Origin: a virus
Lineage: Duplodnaviria; Caudoviricetes
Direction: 5' to 3' (one strand)
Virus record (IMG/VR): IMGVR_UViG_3300045557_000057
Location: 1-26,682 of that record
DNA: 26,682 nt
Shown here: piece by piece, positions 1 to 26,140 of the stretch
Layout: every line of letters starts with the position of its first letter
Numbering within the stretch: position 1 is the stretch's first letter
Notes under the pieces: generated by a model
What the model was told of the DNA's origin: nothing
The model's input: the letters and a program-made list of their open reading frames with translations, nothing else
Databases searched by the model: none
Program-made: the position numbers and the translations under genes

Positions 1-1008
1 ATGAAAGAGAGGATTATCAATGAAATCTTAATGCAGATGGAACCACATATAAACACGGAAACACTGAGGATACTGGAAACGGTAATAATTAAGGCTCTGT
101 ATTATGTGGAAGTTCAGAAGAAAGAAACGGAGTTATCTACGGAAATGGACGATAATCTATACTTATTGGATTTGTATGAGATGCATGTCACAAAAGATGG
201 GTTAAGTGAAAAGACTGTCAGGGTGTACCTTGGAGCCATGCGCAACATGCTCTGCGTGACTGACAAGAACATTCGCCATATCACGGCGGTGGATATCAAG
301 TATTACCTGGACATGTATGCCAGCAAGGGTAATTCAGTCAGGACCGTAAACAACGAGAGACGCTTCCTCTCAGCAGTATTCACATGGTTCCGTAAGCATG
401 GGGTTATCAGTACAAACCCGGTTGAAGCTGTACCAGTTAAGAAAGAACGTAAACCGCCTATTGATTACCTTAAGGGCGTGGAGATTGAACGGTTGAGAGT
501 GGCATGTACAAATCCAAGAGAGCGGGCCTTGATGGAGTTCTTACTCAGCACTGGTGTAAGAATCGGAGAGGTTCCGCAGCTGCGCAAACAGGATATTGAT
601 TGGAGTACCGGAGAGATCGTGATATATGCACATAAGACCTCAGATTACCGGACCGTCTATTTAAATGATGTTGCAAAGGTCCACCTGGAAAAGTATCTGG
701 CCTCCAGGAGTGACAACAGCGATGCATTGTTTGCACGGGTAAGGGCTCCACACAATGCGGTCAATGAGGACGGGTTAAGGTTGGTTATTAAGCAGATAGG
801 AGAAAAGGCCGGGCTTAAGCGCCGGGTATATCCTCACCTCTTCCGCAAGACCATGGCAACCACACTTAGAATCAAAGATTGTGCCATTGAGGATATTCAG
901 CAGATACTTGGGCACAAGGACGCATCAACAACACTTGGATTCTATGCAGCTGCCAACGGGGAACATTTAAGGCAGGTACATAACAGATATATGAGCATTG
1001 GAGCATAA
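1..1008 (+). CDS. XerC/XerD-like tyrosine recombinase with N-terminal SAM-like domain
   Basis: Catalytic motifs STGVRIGE (R), HK (K), YPHLFRKT (HxxR), ILGH (H) and TTLGFY (Y). It lies among accessory genes rather than at a visible att boundary. Confidence 0.92.
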   Translation: MKERIINEILMQMEPHINTETLRILETVIIKALYYVEVQKKETELSTEMDDNLYLLDLYEMHVTKDGLSEKTVRVYLGAMRNMLCVTDKNIRHITAVDIKYYLDMYASKGNSVRTVNNERRFLSAVFTWFRKHGVISTNPVEAVPVKKERKPPIDYLKGVEIERLRVACTNPRERALMEFLLSTGVRIGEVPQLRKQDIDWSTGEIVIYAHKTSDYRTVYLNDVAKVHLEKYLASRSDNSDALFARVRAPHNAVNEDGLRLVIKQIGEKAGLKRRVYPHLFRKTMATTLRIKDCAIEDIQQILGHKDASTTLGFYAAANGEHLRQVHNRYMSIGA

Positions 1009-1024
1009 AAGAAAGGGTAATAAC

Positions 1025-1234
1025 ATGAAGAATAAATTTAAGAAAGCAGCAATCATCCTAATTAAGCTATATGCATTGTACGTCTTTACCATAGCTACCA
1101 TGTTGGCAATGATGATAGGCATAGCAAAGCCGGTCCTTGGAGTGGGAGGCGTGGTTGTGGCAGCGATTGTATTAACAGCACTGAGCAGTGGAGGAGGAGC
1201 AGATGACAGCGGCAGAAATGAAGATGGAACATGA
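1025..1234 (+). CDS. small hypothetical membrane protein
   Basis: ATG at 1025 after AAAGGG, basic N-terminus, two hydrophobic segments. Confidence 0.55.
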   Translation: MKNKFKKAAIILIKLYALYVFTIATMLAMMIGIAKPVLGVGGVVVAAIVLTALSSGGGADDSGRNEDGT

Positions 1235-1448
1235 TCGGGAGTATTTCAGTATGCGGGCTGCAGAAGCAGAACGGGCCGAGAACCAGATAAACCAGATCCG
1301 GGCAGCGATAGCAATACATAAACAAAATCACAGTGACACCATGGTAATGACACATGACCAGAAGAAAAAGGCGGAAGAACAGTGTGCATGGAAGGCCTTG
1401 GATAATATCGAAAAGGAAATTGAGGCTATTATAGGACAGGAGGGATAA
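1203..1448 (+). CDS. hypothetical phage protein
   Basis: GGAGGAG RBS before ATG 1203; helical composition; packed in the operon. Confidence 0.7.
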   Translation: MTAAEMKMEHDREYFSMRAAEAERAENQINQIRAAIAIHKQNHSDTMVMTHDQKKKAEEQCAWKALDNIEKEIEAIIGQEG

Positions 1449-1450
1449 TA

Positions 1451-1708
1451 TTGGCGAAAGCAAAGATATATACCGTTTATGATAATGGAGAGCGTATAGG
1501 AGCCTGGACGGCCCAGGTTGCTAATTTAATATTAGGGATATCCGATGGAGACATTATGAATTGTGCAAGAAGTGAAATGTGGTACAAGGGAAGATATCAT
1601 TTTGTACCGGAAGCTGATAAATCTAATACCGGTATGATCAAGAAGAAACTGGCAGACGATTGGGACTTTACGGTTAAGGCATTACCGCTGATGTGTGGGA
1701 GGCGATAA
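1451..1708 (+). CDS. hypothetical phage protein
   Basis: AGGAGG RBS before the TTG start; tightly packed between its neighbours. Confidence 0.7.
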   Translation: MAKAKIYTVYDNGERIGAWTAQVANLILGISDGDIMNCARSEMWYKGRYHFVPEADKSNTGMIKKKLADDWDFTVKALPLMCGRR

Positions 1709-1710
1709 GG

Positions 1711-2124
1711 TTGGATATTAAAATAACCAGGAAATTACTGAAGGATTATAAAAAAACATTGAGGGAAATCCCGATTCTAGAATATGAACTGAATGAAATG
1801 CAAACTACTGATGCCGGGATCGGTAACAGTACCATCTATGATTATCGTGACGGCTATGCTAAGCCTCAAAGCGTTATAGGGTTTGATTGGCCGCGGTATG
1901 AAAAAAGGAAAAAAGTATTAGATCGAAAAAAAGAAGAAGTAAAAGCTGCGAAGAAATGGATTGAATCAATTGAAGATGGACAGACAAGATGCATATTCCG
2001 AATGAGGTATATAGACGGGATGGAATGGGTAAAAATAGCAGTTCAGACAGGATACGGAGGGAGCCACGACTATCCACGGAAATGCATTCGCGATGCTTAT
2101 TTAAAAGAAATGGGCATCAGATAA
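1711..2124 (+). CDS. ArpU/RinA-like late transcriptional activator
   Basis: C-terminal sigma-region-4-like segment IEDGQTRCIFRMRYIDGMEWVKIA; last gene before the packaging module; GGAGG before TTG 1711. Confidence 0.75.
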   Translation: MDIKITRKLLKDYKKTLREIPILEYELNEMQTTDAGIGNSTIYDYRDGYAKPQSVIGFDWPRYEKRKKVLDRKKEEVKAAKKWIESIEDGQTRCIFRMRYIDGMEWVKIAVQTGYGGSHDYPRKCIRDAYLKEMGIR

Positions 2125-2130
2125 AGATTT

Positions 2131-2161
2131 TCCGTTCTATCCGTTCTATCCGTAATAGAAT
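2131..2161 (+). promoter_or_regulatory. putative activator-dependent late promoter: TCCGTTCTA x2.5 tandem repeat followed by a -10 TAGAAT
   Basis: Repeats at 2131-2139, 2140-2148 and 2149-2153; TAGAAT at 2156-2161; no consensus -35; directly downstream of the activator gene. Confidence 0.6.
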
Positions 2162-2293
2162 AATAGTAGGTCAAAAGGCAAAGCCGAAAGACCTCACCCA
2201 AAAGGTGTGAATAGAAGTGTACACTGCTTTCATGCTATACTGTAAATGGAACAAGTGAATCATAAACCCCCTTATGTTCACTAGGTATCATGG

Positions 2294-2442
2294 AGTCCGA
2301 CTAGTCTTGACGGACTATAATATCAAAGGCGCACCTGGCAATGCGGTGCTAAAAGATTGCTAGTCTGATCTAACCTTTCCAGACTATAAACTGAACTCTA
2401 AGGCCAGTCTGACTTTACCTTACCAGACTATAAACAATAAGG
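2294..2442 (+). repeat. three imperfect repeats AGTCYG-N11/12-CRGACTATAA...AAGGC (predicted H-type pseudoknots)
   Basis: Units start at 2294, 2362 and 2406. The stem shows a compensatory change (AGTCCG/CGGACT vs AGTCTG/CAGACT). Loops are complementary to the downstream AAGG. Confidence 0.75.
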
Positions 2443-2464
2443 CGTGCCGGTGAATCCGGCATAT

Positions 2465-2538
2465 CGGCGCATAGTTCAGCGGCAGAACAACAGTAATCCC
2501 CCTGACTGGAAACCCTGGTTCAAGCCCAGGTGCGCGGA
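2465..2538 (+). ncRNA. tRNA-like element 1 (aberrant anticodon arm)
   Basis: Acceptor CGGCGCA/TGCGCGG (one G.G mismatch), TA, D arm GTTC-AGCGGCA-GAAC, T arm CCTGG-TTCAAGC-CCAGG. Anticodon arm is CAGT/ACTG with a 10-nt loop AATCCCCCTG. No encoded CCA. Confidence 0.75.
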
Positions 2539-2597
2539 TTAAAAGGCTGGGTTCCCGAACGGGAGTAGGTCGTAAGACGTAGAAATCCTTTGCCTTT

Positions 2598-2685
2598 GGC
2601 TCCTGATGGCTTGCTGGCGTAAGCTAACGCATAATAACTATAGATAAAAGCGTATCAGGGCTCGGTTCGATTCCGAGAGGGGCCA
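2598..2685 (+). ncRNA. tRNA-like element 2 (expanded anticodon loop)
   Basis: Acceptor GGCTCCT/AGGGGCC plus A, D-like arm GCTT-GCTGGCGT-AAGC, T arm CTCGG-TTCGATT-CCGAG. The ACGC/GCGT stem closes a 19-nt A-rich loop. Confidence 0.72.
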
Positions 2686-2719
2686 TGCCGAGAAAGAAAA
2701 ATAACTACACAAGTAGTGA

Positions 2720-2777
2720 CGGAACGTAGCCATTAGACGGCAGTATGTAAATTCGGGTTCGCAATCCGGCGTTCCGA
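2720..2777 (+). ncRNA. tRNA-like element 3 (anticodon arm absent)
   Basis: Perfect acceptor CGGAACG/CGTTCCG plus A, TA, D arm GCC-ATTAGAC-GGC, T arm TCGGG-TTCGCAA-TCCGG. Only 11 nt lie between the D and T arms. Confidence 0.72.
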
Positions 2778-2803
2778 TTCAGCTTCATCATAATATACCT
2801 CCT

Positions 2804-2849
2804 AAGGAAGCGCCTGTCATGGTTATGCTGTGATGGGTGTTTCCTTTTT
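2804..2849 (+). terminator. intrinsic terminator closing the ncRNA leader
   Basis: Long G.U-rich stem AAGGAAGCGCCTGTCATGG..CTGTGATGGGTGTTTCCTT followed by a T run. Confidence 0.75.
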
Positions 2850-2894
2850 GGCAATTTTGGCGTATGATAGAAGAAAAGCAAAGGTGAGAAACTT

Positions 2895-2972
2895 ATGTAT
2901 GTTTTAGGTTTTCTTTGTTACTTTGCACCTATAGCGGTAATTATCATAATTTTAGCGATAATCAATAGCTAA
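2895..2972 (+). CDS. 25-aa hydrophobic peptide MYVLGFLCYFAPIAVIIIILAIINS (not in ORF track)
   Basis: AAGGTGAG RBS, TATGAT -10-like box at 2863-2868, and its own terminator immediately after the stop. Confidence 0.55.
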   Translation: MYVLGFLCYFAPIAVIIIILAIINS

Positions 2973-2997
2973 GAGGCGGTCAACCCCGTCTCTTTTT
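2971..2997 (+). terminator. intrinsic terminator
   Basis: AAGAGGCGG-tcaacc-CCGTCTCTT followed by T run. Confidence 0.7.
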
Positions 2998-3026
2998 GAT
3001 ACAAAAACAATGAAAGGAACTTTGAT

Positions 3027-3236
3027 ATGCTAAGAGAATTACGGGCTTACATTAGGATAACATGGGCAGTGATTAGAGAATTGAATCTGGAAACGAAACT
3101 GATAAAGCACCGAAATAAAATGATAGACACATACCTGAGTGTTAACAAGGAATTCCCCGGAAGGCGGTTCACAATGGATAATGTGCAACATGAGTTTGGA
3201 CAGCTTGAATCCAGGATAAAGAACCGGTTCAATTAA
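3027..3236 (+). CDS. hypothetical phage protein
   Basis: GAAAGGA RBS; 69 aa; immediately upstream of terS. Confidence 0.6.
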   Translation: MLRELRAYIRITWAVIRELNLETKLIKHRNKMIDTYLSVNKEFPGRRFTMDNVQHEFGQLESRIKNRFN

Positions 3237-3270
3237 TAAAGCAAAAACAACACAAGTGAGGTGGTGAGGC

Positions 3271-4125
3271 TTGGCAAGAGCACCAGATGAGATTAAAGAG
3301 AAAGCCAGATTACTCTATGAGAGCGGTATAATGCTAAAAGATATAGCCAGCCGCTTAGATGTACCAGAAGGTACGGTACGGTCATGGAAGAATAGAGGGA
3401 AATGGAGTTGCAACGCAACGCAGGAAAAGGAATGCAACGTTGCAAAGAAAACGAAACGCAACAAGGTAAAGAGACAGGTCGTAGCGAAAGAAGTTGAGTC
3501 GGTAATGAGTAATGAGGACTTAACCGATAAGCAACGGCTTTTTTGTATTTATTATAGCAAGTCATTTAATGCAACAAAATCTTACCAGAAAGCATATGAC
3601 GTAAGCTACACGGCGGCGAATGTGGAAGGGTGCAAGCTCCTAGCAAATCCCAGTGTGAGAGAAGAAATCATGAAGCTAAAGGAAATGGCCTATTCCAAGG
3701 CTCTCCTGAGGCCGGAGGATATCTTTCGGAAGTATATGGACATAGCATTTTCCGATATCACAGACTATTTATCGTTCGGGCAGGAAGAGGTACCGGTTAT
3801 GGGAGCATTCGGACCTGTGATTGATAAAGAAACGGATAAGCCGATTACTAAAATCGTAAACATAGTTAAATTCAAAGATAGCTCAGAAGTTGACGGTTCT
3901 ATTATACGGGAAGTAAAACAAGGCAAGGACGGCGCAAGTATCAAACTGTCCGACCAATTAAAGGCCCTTGACTGGCTGACGGACCACATGGACATGGCAA
4001 CGGAGGAACAACGGGCCAGGATAGCGCAGATTAAGGCGCAGACGGATAGGCTAAATAAAGAAGCACCTGGAAAAGAAGATGATGGGGTGGAGATAATTAA
4101 TGATGCGCCAAAAGAAGCAGATTAA
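3271..4125 (+). CDS. terS: terminase small subunit
   Basis: N-terminal HTH (LKDIASRLDVPEGTVRSWKNRGKW), LTDKQRLFCIYY..NATKSYQKAY and IKLSDQLKALDWL motifs; precedes terL. Confidence 0.9.
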   Translation: MARAPDEIKEKARLLYESGIMLKDIASRLDVPEGTVRSWKNRGKWSCNATQEKECNVAKKTKRNKVKRQVVAKEVESVMSNEDLTDKQRLFCIYYSKSFNATKSYQKAYDVSYTAANVEGCKLLANPSVREEIMKLKEMAYSKALLRPEDIFRKYMDIAFSDITDYLSFGQEEVPVMGAFGPVIDKETDKPITKIVNIVKFKDSSEVDGSIIREVKQGKDGASIKLSDQLKALDWLTDHMDMATEEQRARIAQIKAQTDRLNKEAPGKEDDGVEIINDAPKEAD

Positions 4126-5455
4126 AATATCAGATATCATCATACCTAAGTACATGCCCCTATTCAACGATACAAAACATAAGCATATCATTCTTACTTC
4201 CGGGCGTGCGGGTACTAAATCAAGTTATGCAGGGGTAAAGTCAATTTATCAGACAGTATCAGATCCTGCTGGATCCGTGGTGGTCCTGCGAAAACGTCAC
4301 AATAAATTGAGGAAGACGGTTTACAAGGAAATGATACGGGGTATTAACCGCCTGCAGATAGATAAGAACTGCTTTGATATTGGCAAGTCTCCAATGGAGA
4401 TACGATATAAAAAGCACGGTACTGTTCTCTATTTTTCTGGCTCTGATGGAATCGATGATACAAAGGGTATTATAGACGAGGATAAGCCCATTAAGCTTGT
4501 TGTCCTAGACGAGTTGACAGAGTTCTTTGACGATGGTGAAGGAGAAGAAGAACTAGCCAATATAGAGGCAACCTTCGTAAGAGGAAATAAAGCAGGATTT
4601 CAGATGATCTATCTTTATAACCCTCCCAAGAATCCAAACGCACCAATTAACCTTTGGTGTAAGAAAATGGAGCAAAGGCCAGATTGCATACACATTCATA
4701 CTGATTACCGTGATGTGCCTGTGGATTGGCTTGGAGAAGACTTAATAGCCTCTGCTAAGATGATGGAACAATCGGATCCTAAGATGTACCGCTGGACATG
4801 GCTTGGGGAGCCTATAGGCGTTGATGAGCTGATTTACTACATGTATAGTGAGAAGAACCGGTATAAGCCAGAGAATGAGCGATATCGCATCATCGGAGTT
4901 GGAGTGGATTACGGTCAGCAAAATGCAACTACCTACCAGCCATTTGGATTAAACCTTGAAAAAAGAAAGCTGGAAGGCCTGATAGAATACTATCACTCTG
5001 GAAGAGAAACTGGGAAGCAAAAAAGCCCATCTATATACGCAAAGGACTTTATATCATTGACTGATGAGCTGCACGAGAAATATAAGTGCAGTATTTTTTA
5101 TGCCTATATTGACCCATCAGCCGGAGGACTTGCGGAAGAGATTCGAAGACAGGCAATGAATTGTGATTATCAGATCACTATCAAAAAAGCTGAAAATGAT
5201 GTGAAAGTCGGGATCCAGCGTGTACAGAAATGTATGTCCTATGGAATACTTACCGTTTCCCCAATGCAGCCAAAGTTAGACTGGGAGCTGGGATTGTATG
5301 AGTATGAGAAGAAGTCCATACAAAAAGGCAAGGAAGAACCAGTCAAGGAAAATGACCATGGGTGCGATGCCATGAGATATTGCATCATGGGCCTCTGGAC
5401 CAAAATAAAATATTTTATGCCAAGAGCAGAACAGGGAGAAGGTGAAGAAGATTAA
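4100..5455 (+). CDS. terL: PBSX-family terminase large subunit
   Basis: Walker A-like SGRAGTKS, Walker B VVLDE, YNPP coupling motif, nuclease motifs GVDYG, IDPSA and NDHGCDAMRY. Confidence 0.93.
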   Translation: MMRQKKQIKISDIIIPKYMPLFNDTKHKHIILTSGRAGTKSSYAGVKSIYQTVSDPAGSVVVLRKRHNKLRKTVYKEMIRGINRLQIDKNCFDIGKSPMEIRYKKHGTVLYFSGSDGIDDTKGIIDEDKPIKLVVLDELTEFFDDGEGEEELANIEATFVRGNKAGFQMIYLYNPPKNPNAPINLWCKKMEQRPDCIHIHTDYRDVPVDWLGEDLIASAKMMEQSDPKMYRWTWLGEPIGVDELIYYMYSEKNRYKPENERYRIIGVGVDYGQQNATTYQPFGLNLEKRKLEGLIEYYHSGRETGKQKSPSIYAKDFISLTDELHEKYKCSIFYAYIDPSAGGLAEEIRRQAMNCDYQITIKKAENDVKVGIQRVQKCMSYGILTVSPMQPKLDWELGLYEYEKKSIQKGKEEPVKENDHGCDAMRYCIMGLWTKIKYFMPRAEQGEGEED

Positions 5456-6857
5456 TATAATAACGTTTTTGCAGAAGAAAGATTATGACACGGTTCCAGG
5501 GGATCAGTACCGAGCGATTGGAGTCTGGAAAAGCTGGTATCAGGGAAACGTCAGAGGGTTCCATAGATATAAAATCTGCAATGGTGCTAATACCGTGAAA
5601 TGCGATCGCTTATCAGCAGGTATGGCAAAGATGCTGAGTGAGGATCTGGCAGACGATCTGATGAATGAGAAGGTTGGAATCACGATTGCTGATGAAGCAG
5701 AAAAGGAGTTCGTTGATGAGATCTTGAACCAAAATAACTGGCAGATTCAGTCAAATATCTATCAAGAACGGAAGTGTTATACCGGTACTGTGGCCTATGT
5801 CCCGTTTCTTGACAAAGTGGAGATTGATGAGGAAGGAAATGTCATACCGGGATCTGGCACTGTGAATATTAATTACTTTGATGGCGCGGACATTTATCCT
5901 CTCTCTTGGGTAAATGGAATCATAACAGAATGCGCTTTTGTTTCAGTCCATGTTATCAGAGGAAAAAGGTATGCTCATATCCAGATGCATGTGACAGAAG
6001 GTGAAGAATATGTTATTCAGAATTATGTGGTTGAATGCTCTTCTGGATCCGGCACTGAAATACCACCGGAAGGCTGGAAGAGGTTAAAACCTTTTGAAAA
6101 CATGACAGAGAAAGTTTATACCGGATCTAATAATCGGCAGTTTGTTATAGACCGGCTGAACAATACGAATAACATAGACCCTGATTGCCCTATGGGTGTT
6201 GCTTTATTTGCAAATGCAATAGATCAGCTTAAGGGGATAGACACTGTCTATGACTCTTATGTAAATGAGTTTGTACTTGGGAAAAAGCGTATTTTTGTTG
6301 CTCCTGAAATGCTTGCAAGAAATGCAGATGGCGATCCGGTATTTGATCCAAGCGATGTAACATTTTATCAGCTTCCGGAAGACTCTCTGAAAGAAAAACC
6401 TCTGGTAGAAGTGAACATGGATATCCGTGCGGAGGAGCATAGCAGAGCGATTAATGACTTCCTGAATATCCTTTCAGTGAAATGTGGATTTGGTACCCAG
6501 CATTACCGATTTGAAAGCGGCAGCATACAGACGGCTACTCAAGTTATCAGTGAAAATTCTGATATGTACAAAACCATAAAAAAGCATGAAATCATATTGG
6601 AATCTGCTATAAAGGAACTGGTATTCATCATTCTTCGTCTTGGTAATGTGCTTGGTAAGGGGCTTAATGACGAAACTGAGGTTCTTGTAGACTTTGATGA
6701 TTCTATTATTGAGGACAAAGGCACAGAACGCAAGGAAGATAGACAGGACGTTGCTATGGGAGCCATGAGATTAGAGGAATACCGCGCTAAATGGTATAAC
6801 GAGACCTTAAAAGAAGCAGCGGCGAGTTTGCCGGATCCCGTAGAAGTAGAAGAGTAG
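5442..6857 (+). CDS. portal protein (A118/SPP1-like)
   Basis: Follows terL; 471 aa; TATQVISENS and DFDDSII motifs typical of A118-type portals. Confidence 0.88.
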   Translation: MKKINIITFLQKKDYDTVPGDQYRAIGVWKSWYQGNVRGFHRYKICNGANTVKCDRLSAGMAKMLSEDLADDLMNEKVGITIADEAEKEFVDEILNQNNWQIQSNIYQERKCYTGTVAYVPFLDKVEIDEEGNVIPGSGTVNINYFDGADIYPLSWVNGIITECAFVSVHVIRGKRYAHIQMHVTEGEEYVIQNYVVECSSGSGTEIPPEGWKRLKPFENMTEKVYTGSNNRQFVIDRLNNTNNIDPDCPMGVALFANAIDQLKGIDTVYDSYVNEFVLGKKRIFVAPEMLARNADGDPVFDPSDVTFYQLPEDSLKEKPLVEVNMDIRAEEHSRAINDFLNILSVKCGFGTQHYRFESGSIQTATQVISENSDMYKTIKKHEIILESAIKELVFIILRLGNVLGKGLNDETEVLVDFDDSIIEDKGTERKEDRQDVAMGAMRLEEYRAKWYNETLKEAAASLPDPVEVEE

Positions 6858-6867
6858 GTGATGCTAA

Positions 6868-8031
6868 ATGACTCCTGATGAGTTTGAACGGCTTCCAAAG
6901 CCAATAGAGCGTATCATGACAATCATGGAATTGTCTATCATGGCGGAGATTGTGGAGCGCATAGAAAACTCCGGATTAATTACTCCGCTCATTGACTGGA
7001 CAATCGGGCGTATGGCTGCCATAGGTAAAAGCAAGGCCAGGATTAAGAAAATAATCAGAGATACGCTGAGAGATAGTGACCTACAGATAGATAAAATCTA
7101 CGAACATGCAATTAAAGCTGATTATGTAACGAACAAGGAGCTTTATCAGGCCGTAGGAAAGGATTATATCCCGTATCAGGAGAATAAATGGCTGCAGCAA
7201 GTTGTATCGGCAATAAAAGCGCAGACAAAGGACAGTCTGCGTCCCATGGAGAATATTACACAAACCACAGGTTTTAATGTGATGGTAGGTAAGAAAAGAG
7301 TATTCACACCCCTTTCTGAATATCTGGAAAGAACGCTGGATAAAGCCATGATGGAGATTACAACGGGGGTTAAGACATACAGCCAGGCCATTAATGGAGT
7401 GATTGACGAAATGACTTCCAGTGGTTTGCGTACTGTTGATTATGCTTCTGGTAGATCGGATCGTGTGGAGGTAGCCGCCAGGCGTGCTGTTATGACTGGG
7501 GTAGCCCAGCTGACCGATAAAGTCAATGAAAATAACGCCAAGGAGTTGAATACTGACTATTGGGAAGTAGAATGGCACATGGGAGCCAGAAATACAGGTA
7601 CAGGATTTATGAATCATCAAAGCTGGCAGGGTAAGGTGTACAGTTCGGAAGAGATGCGAACTGTCTGTGGCTTGGGTGAAATGTTAGGATTTGCTGGAAT
7701 CAACTGCTACCATATTCGCTTTGCATTTATTCCTGGTATTTCAAAGCGCAAGTATACTGATGAATGGCTTAAAGAGCAGAATCGTAAGGAGAATATGAAA
7801 AAATCCTTTAACGGTAAAGAATATGATACCTACGGTGCATTACAGTATCAGCGTAAGCTTGAAAGAACCATAAGGAAACAGAAGCAAGATATAAAGCTGA
7901 TGGGAAAGGCGAAATCAGATAAAGATGAGATCACAGCGGCGAAGAGCAGAAGAAGATTAACTGAAAAGACCTATGCGGATTTTTCAAAAGCCATGGGTTT
8001 GAGACAGCAAATGGAAAGGTTGAAAGTATGA
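6868..8031 (+). CDS. phage minor capsid protein
   Basis: EVAARRAVMTG, HMGAR..HQSWQGKVY, GINCYH and QRKLERTIRKQK motifs; follows the portal. Confidence 0.85.
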   Translation: MTPDEFERLPKPIERIMTIMELSIMAEIVERIENSGLITPLIDWTIGRMAAIGKSKARIKKIIRDTLRDSDLQIDKIYEHAIKADYVTNKELYQAVGKDYIPYQENKWLQQVVSAIKAQTKDSLRPMENITQTTGFNVMVGKKRVFTPLSEYLERTLDKAMMEITTGVKTYSQAINGVIDEMTSSGLRTVDYASGRSDRVEVAARRAVMTGVAQLTDKVNENNAKELNTDYWEVEWHMGARNTGTGFMNHQSWQGKVYSSEEMRTVCGLGEMLGFAGINCYHIRFAFIPGISKRKYTDEWLKEQNRKENMKKSFNGKEYDTYGALQYQRKLERTIRKQKQDIKLMGKAKSDKDEITAAKSRRRLTEKTYADFSKAMGLRQQMERLKV

Positions 8032-25182: not shown

Positions 25183-25208
25183 GGCGGGTGCCGTATACCG
25201 GCCCCGCC
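25183..25208. terminator. GC-rich hairpin between convergent genes
   Basis: GGCGGG..CCCGCC stem with an A tract upstream (T tract on the minus strand). Confidence 0.5.
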
Positions 25209-26140
25209 TACACTTGACATTCTAAAGCTGTTTTATCTTCTCTTATTCCCTTGAAAACGGGTTGTCTAAAGCCTTTATTTTCAGACGGCATGGATTCCAC
25301 AATGCAAACCAGATCCGGGGCCAGCCAAACGGCATTTTCGTTTCCTGCCGGCACAAAGCCAAACGGCGAATAATCGATCACTTTGTAATCGTATTGATTT
25401 AGAACCCTTAAGCTTACCCCAAGCGTAACATGGCCCTTATATACAAGCACATCTTCATCGTATTGCCCTATGATAAGGCTTGTCATACTTTTCTCTTTGA
25501 TGATATATCCGCAGATAATACAATCATCAGAATCTAATACCTTGAACTTGACCCAATCCTTAGAGCGTTTCCCCTGCCAGTAAAGACTACTTTTCTTCTT
25601 TGCGACCACACCTTCAAGGCCCTTTTCTTTTACAAGATCAAATAGCATGACCCCGTTATCTTCAATGTACCTGGATACGGATATCATACCATTCTCGACT
25701 ACAACGTCCTGCAGATACTTTTTTCGTTCAATAAGTGGGAGCATGGTTATATCCTTGTCTTTGTAGTATAGGATATCATAGGCGATGATGCTGGCCGGAT
25801 ATCTCTCAGAGGATAATTTGATCTTAAATGGATTGGTCATTGTCGCGCGCTTTTGGACCTCGTAAAATTCCGGCATCCCATTTCTGAGCACAAGCAATTC
25901 ATGGTCAAGGATACACTTCACTTTTACCTGCTCATGGAGATTTTGCAGTTCAGGGAAGATAGGAGCCATGAGTTTATTCCGTTTATTTCTTATGTCTGTT
26001 TCTGTTCCCAAATATGAAACACATCTGATTCCGTCCCATTTAATTTCAAAAATGTAATCCGGAGAATCGAAGGGATCCTTCATTTCCGCAATTAACATCG
26101 GGCTTATCTTTCTGTTGTCGAATATATCCATTATACACAC
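25208..26140 (-). CDS. ATP-dependent DNA ligase (LigD/LigC-type ligase domain)
   Basis: EIKWDGIR (KxDG), ILDHE, AYDILY, GLEGVVAKKKSSLY..GKRSKDWVKFK and FRQPVFKGIREDK motifs. Confidence 0.92.
   Translation of the reverse strand: MCIMDIFDNRKISPMLIAEMKDPFDSPDYIFEIKWDGIRCVSYLGTETDIRNKRNKLMAPIFPELQNLHEQVKVKCILDHELLVLRNGMPEFYEVQKRATMTNPFKIKLSSERYPASIIAYDILYYKDKDITMLPLIERKKYLQDVVVENGMISVSRYIEDNGVMLFDLVKEKGLEGVVAKKKSSLYWQGKRSKDWVKFKVLDSDDCIICGYIIKEKSMTSLIIGQYDEDVLVYKGHVTLGVSLRVLNQYDYKVIDYSPFGFVPAGNENAVWLAPDLVCIVESMPSENKGFRQPVFKGIREDKTALECQV

Follow-up and report, generated by a model that had tools for sequence, protein, structure and literature searches.

Short tRNA shapes with a reduced anticodon arm, such as mascRNA, menRNA and the t-elements of archaea or plant mitochondria, mark cleavage sites of RNase P and RNase Z and set where an adjacent RNA ends. 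Canonical tRNA genes of phage late leaders (RF00005) have the order acceptor–D–anticodon–T–acceptor, a 7+5 branch and no encoded CCA. Mimicry of tRNA is also seen in the YrlA Y RNAs (RF02553), which occur in phages and possess D, T and acceptor stems; in these the T arm precedes the D arm, the acceptor is a closed hairpin, the gene lies near that of Ro60, and a YrlA RNA with a 7-bp acceptor stem is cleaved by RNase P and receives CCA (PMC4201824). Irregular tRNA polycistrons and allo-tRNAs form arrays of non-canonical tRNA-like RNAs for which a toxin–antitoxin link has been suggested and among which UAU anticodons are frequent; they keep their anticodons and have an 8/4 or 9/3 branch, with a long V arm in the allo-tRNAs (PMC5389517).

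Phages carry other non-coding RNAs as well. GOLLD and ROOL are found beside tRNAs in phage tRNA islands, in accounts whose accessible portions do not mention anticodon-less neighbours (PMC12990946, 10.1101/2024.12.08.627333). Pseudo-ToxI of phage phiTE is reported to be a phage-borne version of an RNA linked with a defence nuclease (PMC3475682), and the work on AbiF/RCd22 describes AbiF as a HEPN toxin held by an RNA (10.1101/2025.04.15.648962). In type III toxin–antitoxin systems a repeated RNA is situated upstream of the toxin gene, with a terminator between the two.

Here we describe a window of 26,682 nucleotides (positions 1 to 26,682 of the IMG/VR record IMGVR_UViG_3300045557_000057), a provirus that is 67% complete, which carries three tRNA-shaped elements. 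They are a real, selected feature of the phage, in which tRNA mimicry is combined with an undescribed cargo RNA, here called M. The elements share the slot, the arm order, the 7+5 branch and the lack of encoded CCA with canonical late-leader tRNA genes, but lack the 5-bp anticodon stem and 7-nt loop (having instead a 10-nt loop, a 19-nt loop or nothing), and all three score below the cut-off of the RF00005 tRNA model. Unlike the YrlA RNAs they keep the tRNA order; the window holds no match to RF02553 and none to Ro60/TROVE, with 2.4 kb upstream of the elements covered against a criterion of about 4 kb and a control that was positive in 2/14 genomes. From mascRNA and the t-elements they differ in their bacterial phage context and in the existence of several interchangeable types, and no Rfam mascRNA match was obtained at 1-8000 or 2100-3050, where Rfam scans returned chance matches only. 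In contrast to the irregular tRNAs their branch is 7/5 and they have no decoding anticodon. The cassette contains neither GOLLD nor ROOL, and the abiF, tRNA, ToxI and YrlA models run on the window found nothing there. M resembles pseudo-ToxI as a phage copy of an RNA associated with a defence nuclease; however, it has no Rfam match to ToxI or abiF and its antitoxin role is putative, and in being single-copy, downstream of and convergent to the DUF3644 gene it departs from the type III arrangement.

Setting of the elements

The elements occupy a non-coding stretch between a gene of the late-activator type and terS (Table 1). The activator, which we take to be ArpU/RinA-like, had no relative among the genome contigs searched. 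Close relatives of the phage that carries the cassette were found on contigs labelled Lacrimispora, Hungatella and Clostridium sp. The right end of the record carries an ATP-dependent DNA ligase gene (25208-26140).

Table 1. Features of the cassette and its borders, in window positions
Feature	Position	Strand	Basis or remark
Late transcriptional activator gene, upstream border	1693..2124	+	PHROGs phrog_36 (E 9e-17), phrog_248
Predicted late promoter: short direct repeats, -10-like hexamer at 2156-2161	2131..2161	+	Sequence, inferred
Two tandem stem-loop units, predicted H-type pseudoknots	2359..2442	+	33-nt repeat, 85%
Conserved hairpin just 5' of element 1	2445..2461	+	Serves as anchor in 37/37 cassettes
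Element 1, full tRNA shape with 10-nt C-rich loop replacing the anticodon loop	2465..2538	+	Sequence
M, uncatalogued structured RNA core, 57 nt	2541..2597	+	Between elements 1 and 2; no DUF3644 gene here
Element 2, tRNA shape with 19-nt A-rich loop	2598..2685	+	Sequence
Small hairpin, 5' leader of element 3	2704..2717	+	Travels with element 3; before it in 6/6 copies seen
Element 3, 58-nt tRNA shape without anticodon arm, divergent D and T loops	2720..2777	+	Sequence
Conserved 3' module ending in anti-Shine-Dalgarno-like ACCTCCT	2778..2803	+	
Predicted intrinsic terminator, long hairpin with T tract, closing the cassette	2804..2851	+	Fold, inverted repeat
Terminase small subunit gene (terS), downstream border	3271..4125	+	phrog_2606 (E 2e-100)

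The predicted late promoter was not reported by the promoter scan; a TATAAT-like hexamer occupies the equivalent position in sister loci. Within the predicted pseudoknots, the loop CCTTA (2418-2422) is able to pair with the downstream TAAGG (2438-2442), and across cassettes the pairing varies between CCTTA/TAAGG and CCCTTA/TAAGGG. These units have an A-rich loop and a topology resembling type III antitoxin RNAs (ToxI/CptI), without a match to the Rfam ToxI model (RF02519), and an exact-pattern scan for them gave eight matches, two of which lie in known cassette contigs. Folded with the preceding unit, the conserved hairpin has a z-score of -3.65.

On the minus strand the 3' module reads as a Shine-Dalgarno sequence plus ATG; the ORF is not conserved, and a putative minus-strand peptide running through element 3 was rejected as a conserved product, being only 28 codons long here and in a different frame in sister loci. 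Positions 2778-2803 and 2258-2274 are conserved modules of the form CAT-N-CCTCC / CCCCTT with complementarity to start regions, and the former pairs with start regions better than shuffled sequences (7/300). The terminator scan did not list the hairpin that closes the cassette.

Contigs from RNA runs (8 runs, 8 studies) fall within 2200-2521, none spanning element 2 or 3, and two of them cross the conserved hairpin into the tRNA-shaped type of a sister cassette. These runs had been picked by those same sequence words and contribute small shares, a DNA origin is possible, and neither ends nor levels can be read from them; they are at most a weak hint that the cassette is transcribed.

Shape and detection of the elements

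A first-pass annotation, made from the sequence alone, had reported three tRNA-shaped elements in 2465..2777. A structural scanner applied to both strands of the 26.7 kb returned exactly these three, with none in 100 whole-window shuffles and one match in 2/2000 shuffles of the intergenic region, under criteria (acceptor, D-like and T stems plus discriminator A) that were written after the elements had been seen and are hence tuned to them. Most of the annotated architecture was borne out: each element has A73, a D-like arm, a T stem paired at 5/5 positions beneath a 7-nt loop and no CCA at its 3' end, and the anticodon region is a 10-nt loop, a 19-nt loop and missing (58 nt), respectively. 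The 7-bp acceptor stem claimed for all three is present in elements 2 and 3 (7/7 each); element 1 pairs at 6/7 positions, with a G2-G71 mismatch.

Element 1 is the most tRNA-like in its details, with canonical U8-A9 and D arm, the D-loop GG, and a 4-bp anticodon stem closing the loop at 2495-2504. Element 2 keeps the GG without U8-A9; its acceptor includes one G-U pair, its D-like stem is 4-5 bp, and a 4-bp stem lies under the 19-nt loop, with an alternative pairing of 2602-2607 with 2654-2659. Element 3 has U8-A9 and a 3-bp D-like stem without GG, an 11-nt linker where the anticodon arm would be, and two G-U pairs in its 5-bp T stem. Folding z-scores of elements 1, 2 and 3 are -0.02, -2.27 and -2.76; the minimum-energy fold of element 1 is not a cloverleaf and is no better than those of shuffled sequences. 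Pseudo or undetermined calls had been expected from ARAGORN, which called element 1 alone, as tRNA-???, and neither of the other two.

Conservation across sister cassettes

Pattern scans gave 61 distinct anchor matches, 37 of which were kept as cassettes while 24 were discarded by eye as chance; L194 is a chance match. The 37 distinct cassettes belong to Lacrimispora/Hungatella-type prophages and lie between the ArpU/RinA-like activator gene and terS, reshuffling eight tRNA-shaped types, and counts over them are not independent because the phages that carry them are related. All 37 show the conserved hairpin, then at least one tRNA shape, then the conserved 3' module with a terminator-like hairpin. 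Element 1 is present in 32/37 cassettes, in 20/37 as the sole tRNA shape and without M; element 2 is found in 4/37 and in L192, in near-identical copies, and element 3 in 5/37 and in L192. At L192, a short look-alike stretch joins element 2 to the beginning of a terS-like gene, by recombination or chimeric assembly.

Seven of the 37 cassettes (L001, L010, L015, L023, L035, L048, L188) contain a canonical-looking tRNA-Ile(UAU), and four further aberrant tRNA-shaped types are spread across six cassettes. The tRNA-Ile, with pyrimidine-1/G72 and no CCA, is the only decoding-type tRNA of the family; since it too lacks CCA, this lack is nothing special to the elements. Aberrant anticodon arms, with a 12-nt loop or extended or mismatched stems, are seen at L014, L033, L037/L043/L050 and L317.

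The first-pass annotation had argued against random decay, and had named canonical tRNAs at this place in close relatives as the finding that would speak for it. Its argument stands: among the 37 cassettes no canonical tRNA replaces elements 1-3, and stem pairing is extensive. Counted over 23 of the 24 variants of element 1 (L115 left out), the D stem and the anticodon stem are each paired in 92/92 cells, the acceptor in 140/161 and the T stem in 105/115, the last figure including four variants misregistered by one base (L004, L008, L012, L016), three of which are really 5/5. The loop has 10 nt in 22/23 and CCCC in 22/23, in a listing whose L048 row is a different type and whose L016 and L115 rows are shifted. 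The acceptor is imperfect, by mismatch or bulge, in 21-23 of the 24 variants and a clean 7/7 in one. Because its stem is paired, its loop length fixed and its CCCC retained, the anticodon arm of element 1 is rebuilt and conserved; the earlier description of the arm as destroyed is not apt for this element. Over six variants of element 3 the stems are paired in 90/90 cells.

Covariation of the stems, proposed as a check, gave an uneven picture. Double changes occur in all four stems of element 1, mostly following one split between two subtypes, whilst the six variants of element 3 show no significant covariation (351/500 shuffles). Element 2 is nearly invariant over five copies, and its structure is therefore without comparative support; a relaxed search recovered only three near-identical copies.

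A wider class lacking the anticodon arm

The L048 cassette holds a unit that has canonical D and T arms, no anticodon arm and most of the acceptor stem of element 3. A class pattern in which only the D-arm letters, a 12-18-nt gap and the start of the T loop are fixed found 111 viral loci, 31 of them with short flanks. Among 85 distinct parsed matches (L197-L307), 61 pair at least 6/7 acceptor positions, as against a mean of 3.6 and a maximum of 12 in strand-swap shuffles and 0-4 in slid registers. Across these 61 units the acceptor 5' strand takes 52 forms and the discriminator four (A in 30, G in 15, C in 9, T in 7), a diversity which fits generic readers of shape better than one synthetase; CCA follows only three of them.

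ARAGORN called none of the 66 anticodon-less units given to it. Run on 54 viral and 6 genomic loci, the Rfam tRNA model gives many of them a score over its threshold, so that pipelines may list such units as undetermined tRNAs. Some adjoin terminase or late-activator genes, some lie in tRNA clusters, and some are located directly behind GOLLD (L237) or ROOL (L314 and L248, one lineage). The ORFs that flank the class include terminase, activator and HNH genes and no toxins, most of the 91 having no match. A scan of genomes gave nine matches, of which L315 has masked bases and L316 no acceptor stem. Element 3 shares the architecture of the class and not its D-loop letters, and is thus a divergent case that the class pattern does not match. 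As judged from sequence, tRNA shapes without an anticodon arm are widespread in unrelated phages.

The M RNA

Positions 2541-2597, which the first-pass annotation had not picked out, match Corynebacterium and Flavonifractor phages, in which a stand-alone M has its own promoter-like site, a closing stem and a T tract and is convergent with a gene for a DUF3644 + EC042_2821 protein. A relaxed scan yielded at least 120 loci (40 of 120 with short flanks) and 93 distinct copies. Among the matches listed, M is convergent with DUF3644 genes in 35/93 distinct viral copies, being single-copy and downstream in all 35; a further 36/93 have no DUF3644 match despite at least 600 bases of flank, and 22 are too short to judge. 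M accompanies DUF3644/PDC-S19 in phages of both Firmicutes and Actinobacteria (L136, L140, L142, L144, L146, L165, L167, L169, L005, L006). The closing pairs of M covary (75/91, shuffle mean 52.5, maximum 61).

DUF3644 is given as a HEPN domain in PMC3710099. The partner proteins of M match the PADLOC candidate PDC-S19, with R-x4-H kept in 6/6. M had no Rfam match in 12 loci and none to abiF (RF03085), its partner being DUF3644 + EC042_2821 and not Abi_2. The sequence associations make M a candidate RNA antitoxin partner of DUF3644/PDC-S19 HEPN nucleases; given its downstream, convergent position and the 36/93 copies without DUF3644, M might also be an antisense or terminator element.

Within the cassettes M directly follows a tRNA or tRNA-shaped unit in 6/6 cases, and on its 3' side stands a tRNA shape in 5/6 and, in the remaining one, a remnant of element 2 five bases long. 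Unlike stand-alone M, M in the cassettes no longer has a promoter, closing stem and terminator of its own. The same order around M, with an anticodon-less unit, is found in a Corynebacterium prophage (L308/L219/L367). Among the matches listed, a tRNA-shaped 3' end lies at most 45 nt upstream of M in 5/56 copies without a DUF3644 match, as against 0/34 with one. DUF3644 itself is absent from the window and from 5/5 M-bearing records tested (positive control 3/3), and was found in 0/49 genomes of the presumed host genus, being seen only in other genomes of the family.

The neighbours of unpaired stand-alone copies are integrases and a mixture of other genes, RhuM, PemK and SIR2 among them. One phage group has M in cassette-like arrays whose modules are bounded by repeated AACTGG (L327, L344, L346, L347, L352, L361, L365, L370, L371, L373, L379, L380, L385, L396), and at L349 M comes 40 nt after a reverse transcriptase gene that has the same orientation.

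Possible functions

The explanation that we prefer, to which we would give an even chance, is that the elements are conserved, interchangeable modules of the cassette, which likely serve as handles for RNase P and RNase Z and so free stable RNAs, among them M as a predicted neutraliser of DUF3644. The cassette would be transcribed from the late promoter, and the host enzymes would cut the transcript at the tRNA shapes into separate stable RNAs. Cleavage behind A73 of element 1 and ahead of G1 of element 2 would excise M almost exactly (2539-2597), with the pseudoknot region upstream and the tRNA bodies as further products. M may then neutralise DUF3644 HEPN defence nucleases in an antitoxin-like role, whilst handles without an anticodon would stay clear of translation and of anticodon nucleases. 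Processing punctuation was among the functions first suggested, and the support gained for it is positional: M lies between tRNA shapes or a remnant in 6/6 cassettes, and units of the wider class follow GOLLD and ROOL. Position, together with the lack of a shared acceptor identity, supports the role as handles.

A number of findings run counter to this role. Element 1 stands alone, without M, in 20/37 cassettes, though with structured RNA upstream, and a loop of constant length, with CCCC, on a paired anticodon stem exceeds the needs of a handle. The L048 cassette has a canonical-looking tRNA-Ile upstream of M, so mimics are not required. Among the matches listed, 51/56 unpaired M copies have no upstream tRNA shape. 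In element 3 the D loop is without GG and the T loop is odd, and the acceptor of element 1 is imperfect. Counter-defence by M in this phage also has against it the count of 0/49 for DUF3644 in the presumed host genus.

A possible alternative, which we hold only tentatively, is that the effector role falls to the tRNA-shaped RNAs, as abundant decoys, uncleavable or uncharged, for tRNA-targeting enzymes or toxins, each type directed at another enzyme, with processing serving only to mature them. Eight distinct types swapped in one slot look like a variable set of cargo, element 1 is often alone and keeps a specific loop, and there is no Rfam RNA close to many of the 61 anticodon-less units. The neighbouring M belongs with a HEPN defence candidate, which is guilt by association only. 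Precedents are phage RNA mimicry of an antitoxin (PMC3475682) and the occurrence of irregular tRNAs near toxin–antitoxin genes (PMC5389517). Against this, a decoy for an anticodon nuclease would be expected to retain an anticodon-like arm, of which element 3 has none, and the ORFs beside the anticodon-less class are terminase, activator and HNH genes rather than toxins (most of 91 without a match). The conserved loop and frequent solitude of element 1 argue for a further function of the bodies, of which that of decoy is the most plausible and is compatible with their being handles. Both roles would be joined in a programmable, all-RNA counter-defence, in which RNA antitoxins captured from an undescribed HEPN system (DUF3644/PDC-S19 plus M) sit between genes of a widespread, overlooked anticodon-less tRNA class that act both in cargo release, by way of host tRNA processing, and as uncleavable decoys against tRNA-targeting defences; we put this forward as speculative.

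It is improbable that the elements are stable scaffolds displaying guide loops, with the C-rich loop of element 1 pairing with ribosome-binding sites. That loop is an exact 10-nt complement of the ribosome-binding site before gene 10388 and matches 9/10 before 11202. However, across 30 phage stretches the match tracks the morphogenesis module and not the loop, being present at a start in 5/11 loop carriers versus 8/19 non-carriers; carriers of variant loops match their own genes in 2/15, and the pairing averaged over 26 start regions does not exceed that of shuffled loops (57/300). The suggestion of guide loops thus fails for the phage's own late genes, and was rejected for them.

That the elements are decaying tRNA pseudogenes, carried by recent common descent, is very improbable. 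It would suit the mismatch or bulge in the element 1 acceptor of 23/24 variants with a fold no better than shuffles, the near-identity of element 2 copies, the non-significant covariation of element 3 and the descent of most element 1 double changes from one subtype split. But the slot holds no canonical ancestor in 37 cassettes, the D and anticodon stems of element 1 stay fully paired with a loop of fixed length, and 61/85 unrelated anticodon-less matches retain a paired acceptor with unrelated sequences. Least probable of all is charging or another unusual entry into translation, as tmRNA-like molecules or as EF-Tu or synthetase sinks: elements 1 and 3 share C1-G72 and A73, presumably a tRNA-Pro-like combination, and the 7+5 branch is intact, but pair 3-70 is G-C or C-G and not G3-U70, there is no tag frame, ARAGORN finds no tmRNA, and acceptor identity is not conserved over the wider anticodon-less class.

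Significance

In the open literature searched, which takes in few subscription papers, we found no account that treats phage tRNA genes without an anticodon as a class, and no RNA tied to DUF3644 or PDC-S19; these motifs could be present in the candidate RNA tables of PMC10690425 or the supplement of PMC5389517. Two directly testable objects emerge, the anticodon-arm-less tRNA-shaped genes and M. With M, a HEPN defence family that is uncharacterised gains a candidate RNA partner, and the occurrence of M alone in phage late leaders is the pattern expected of an RNA counter-defence, of which few cases are known; tRNA-shaped flanks offer a systematic way to find such cargo RNAs. Genes without an anticodon arm, which ARAGORN does not see, turn up repeatedly in unrelated phages, and part of the question of why phages carry tRNAs may therefore concern RNAs that never decode.
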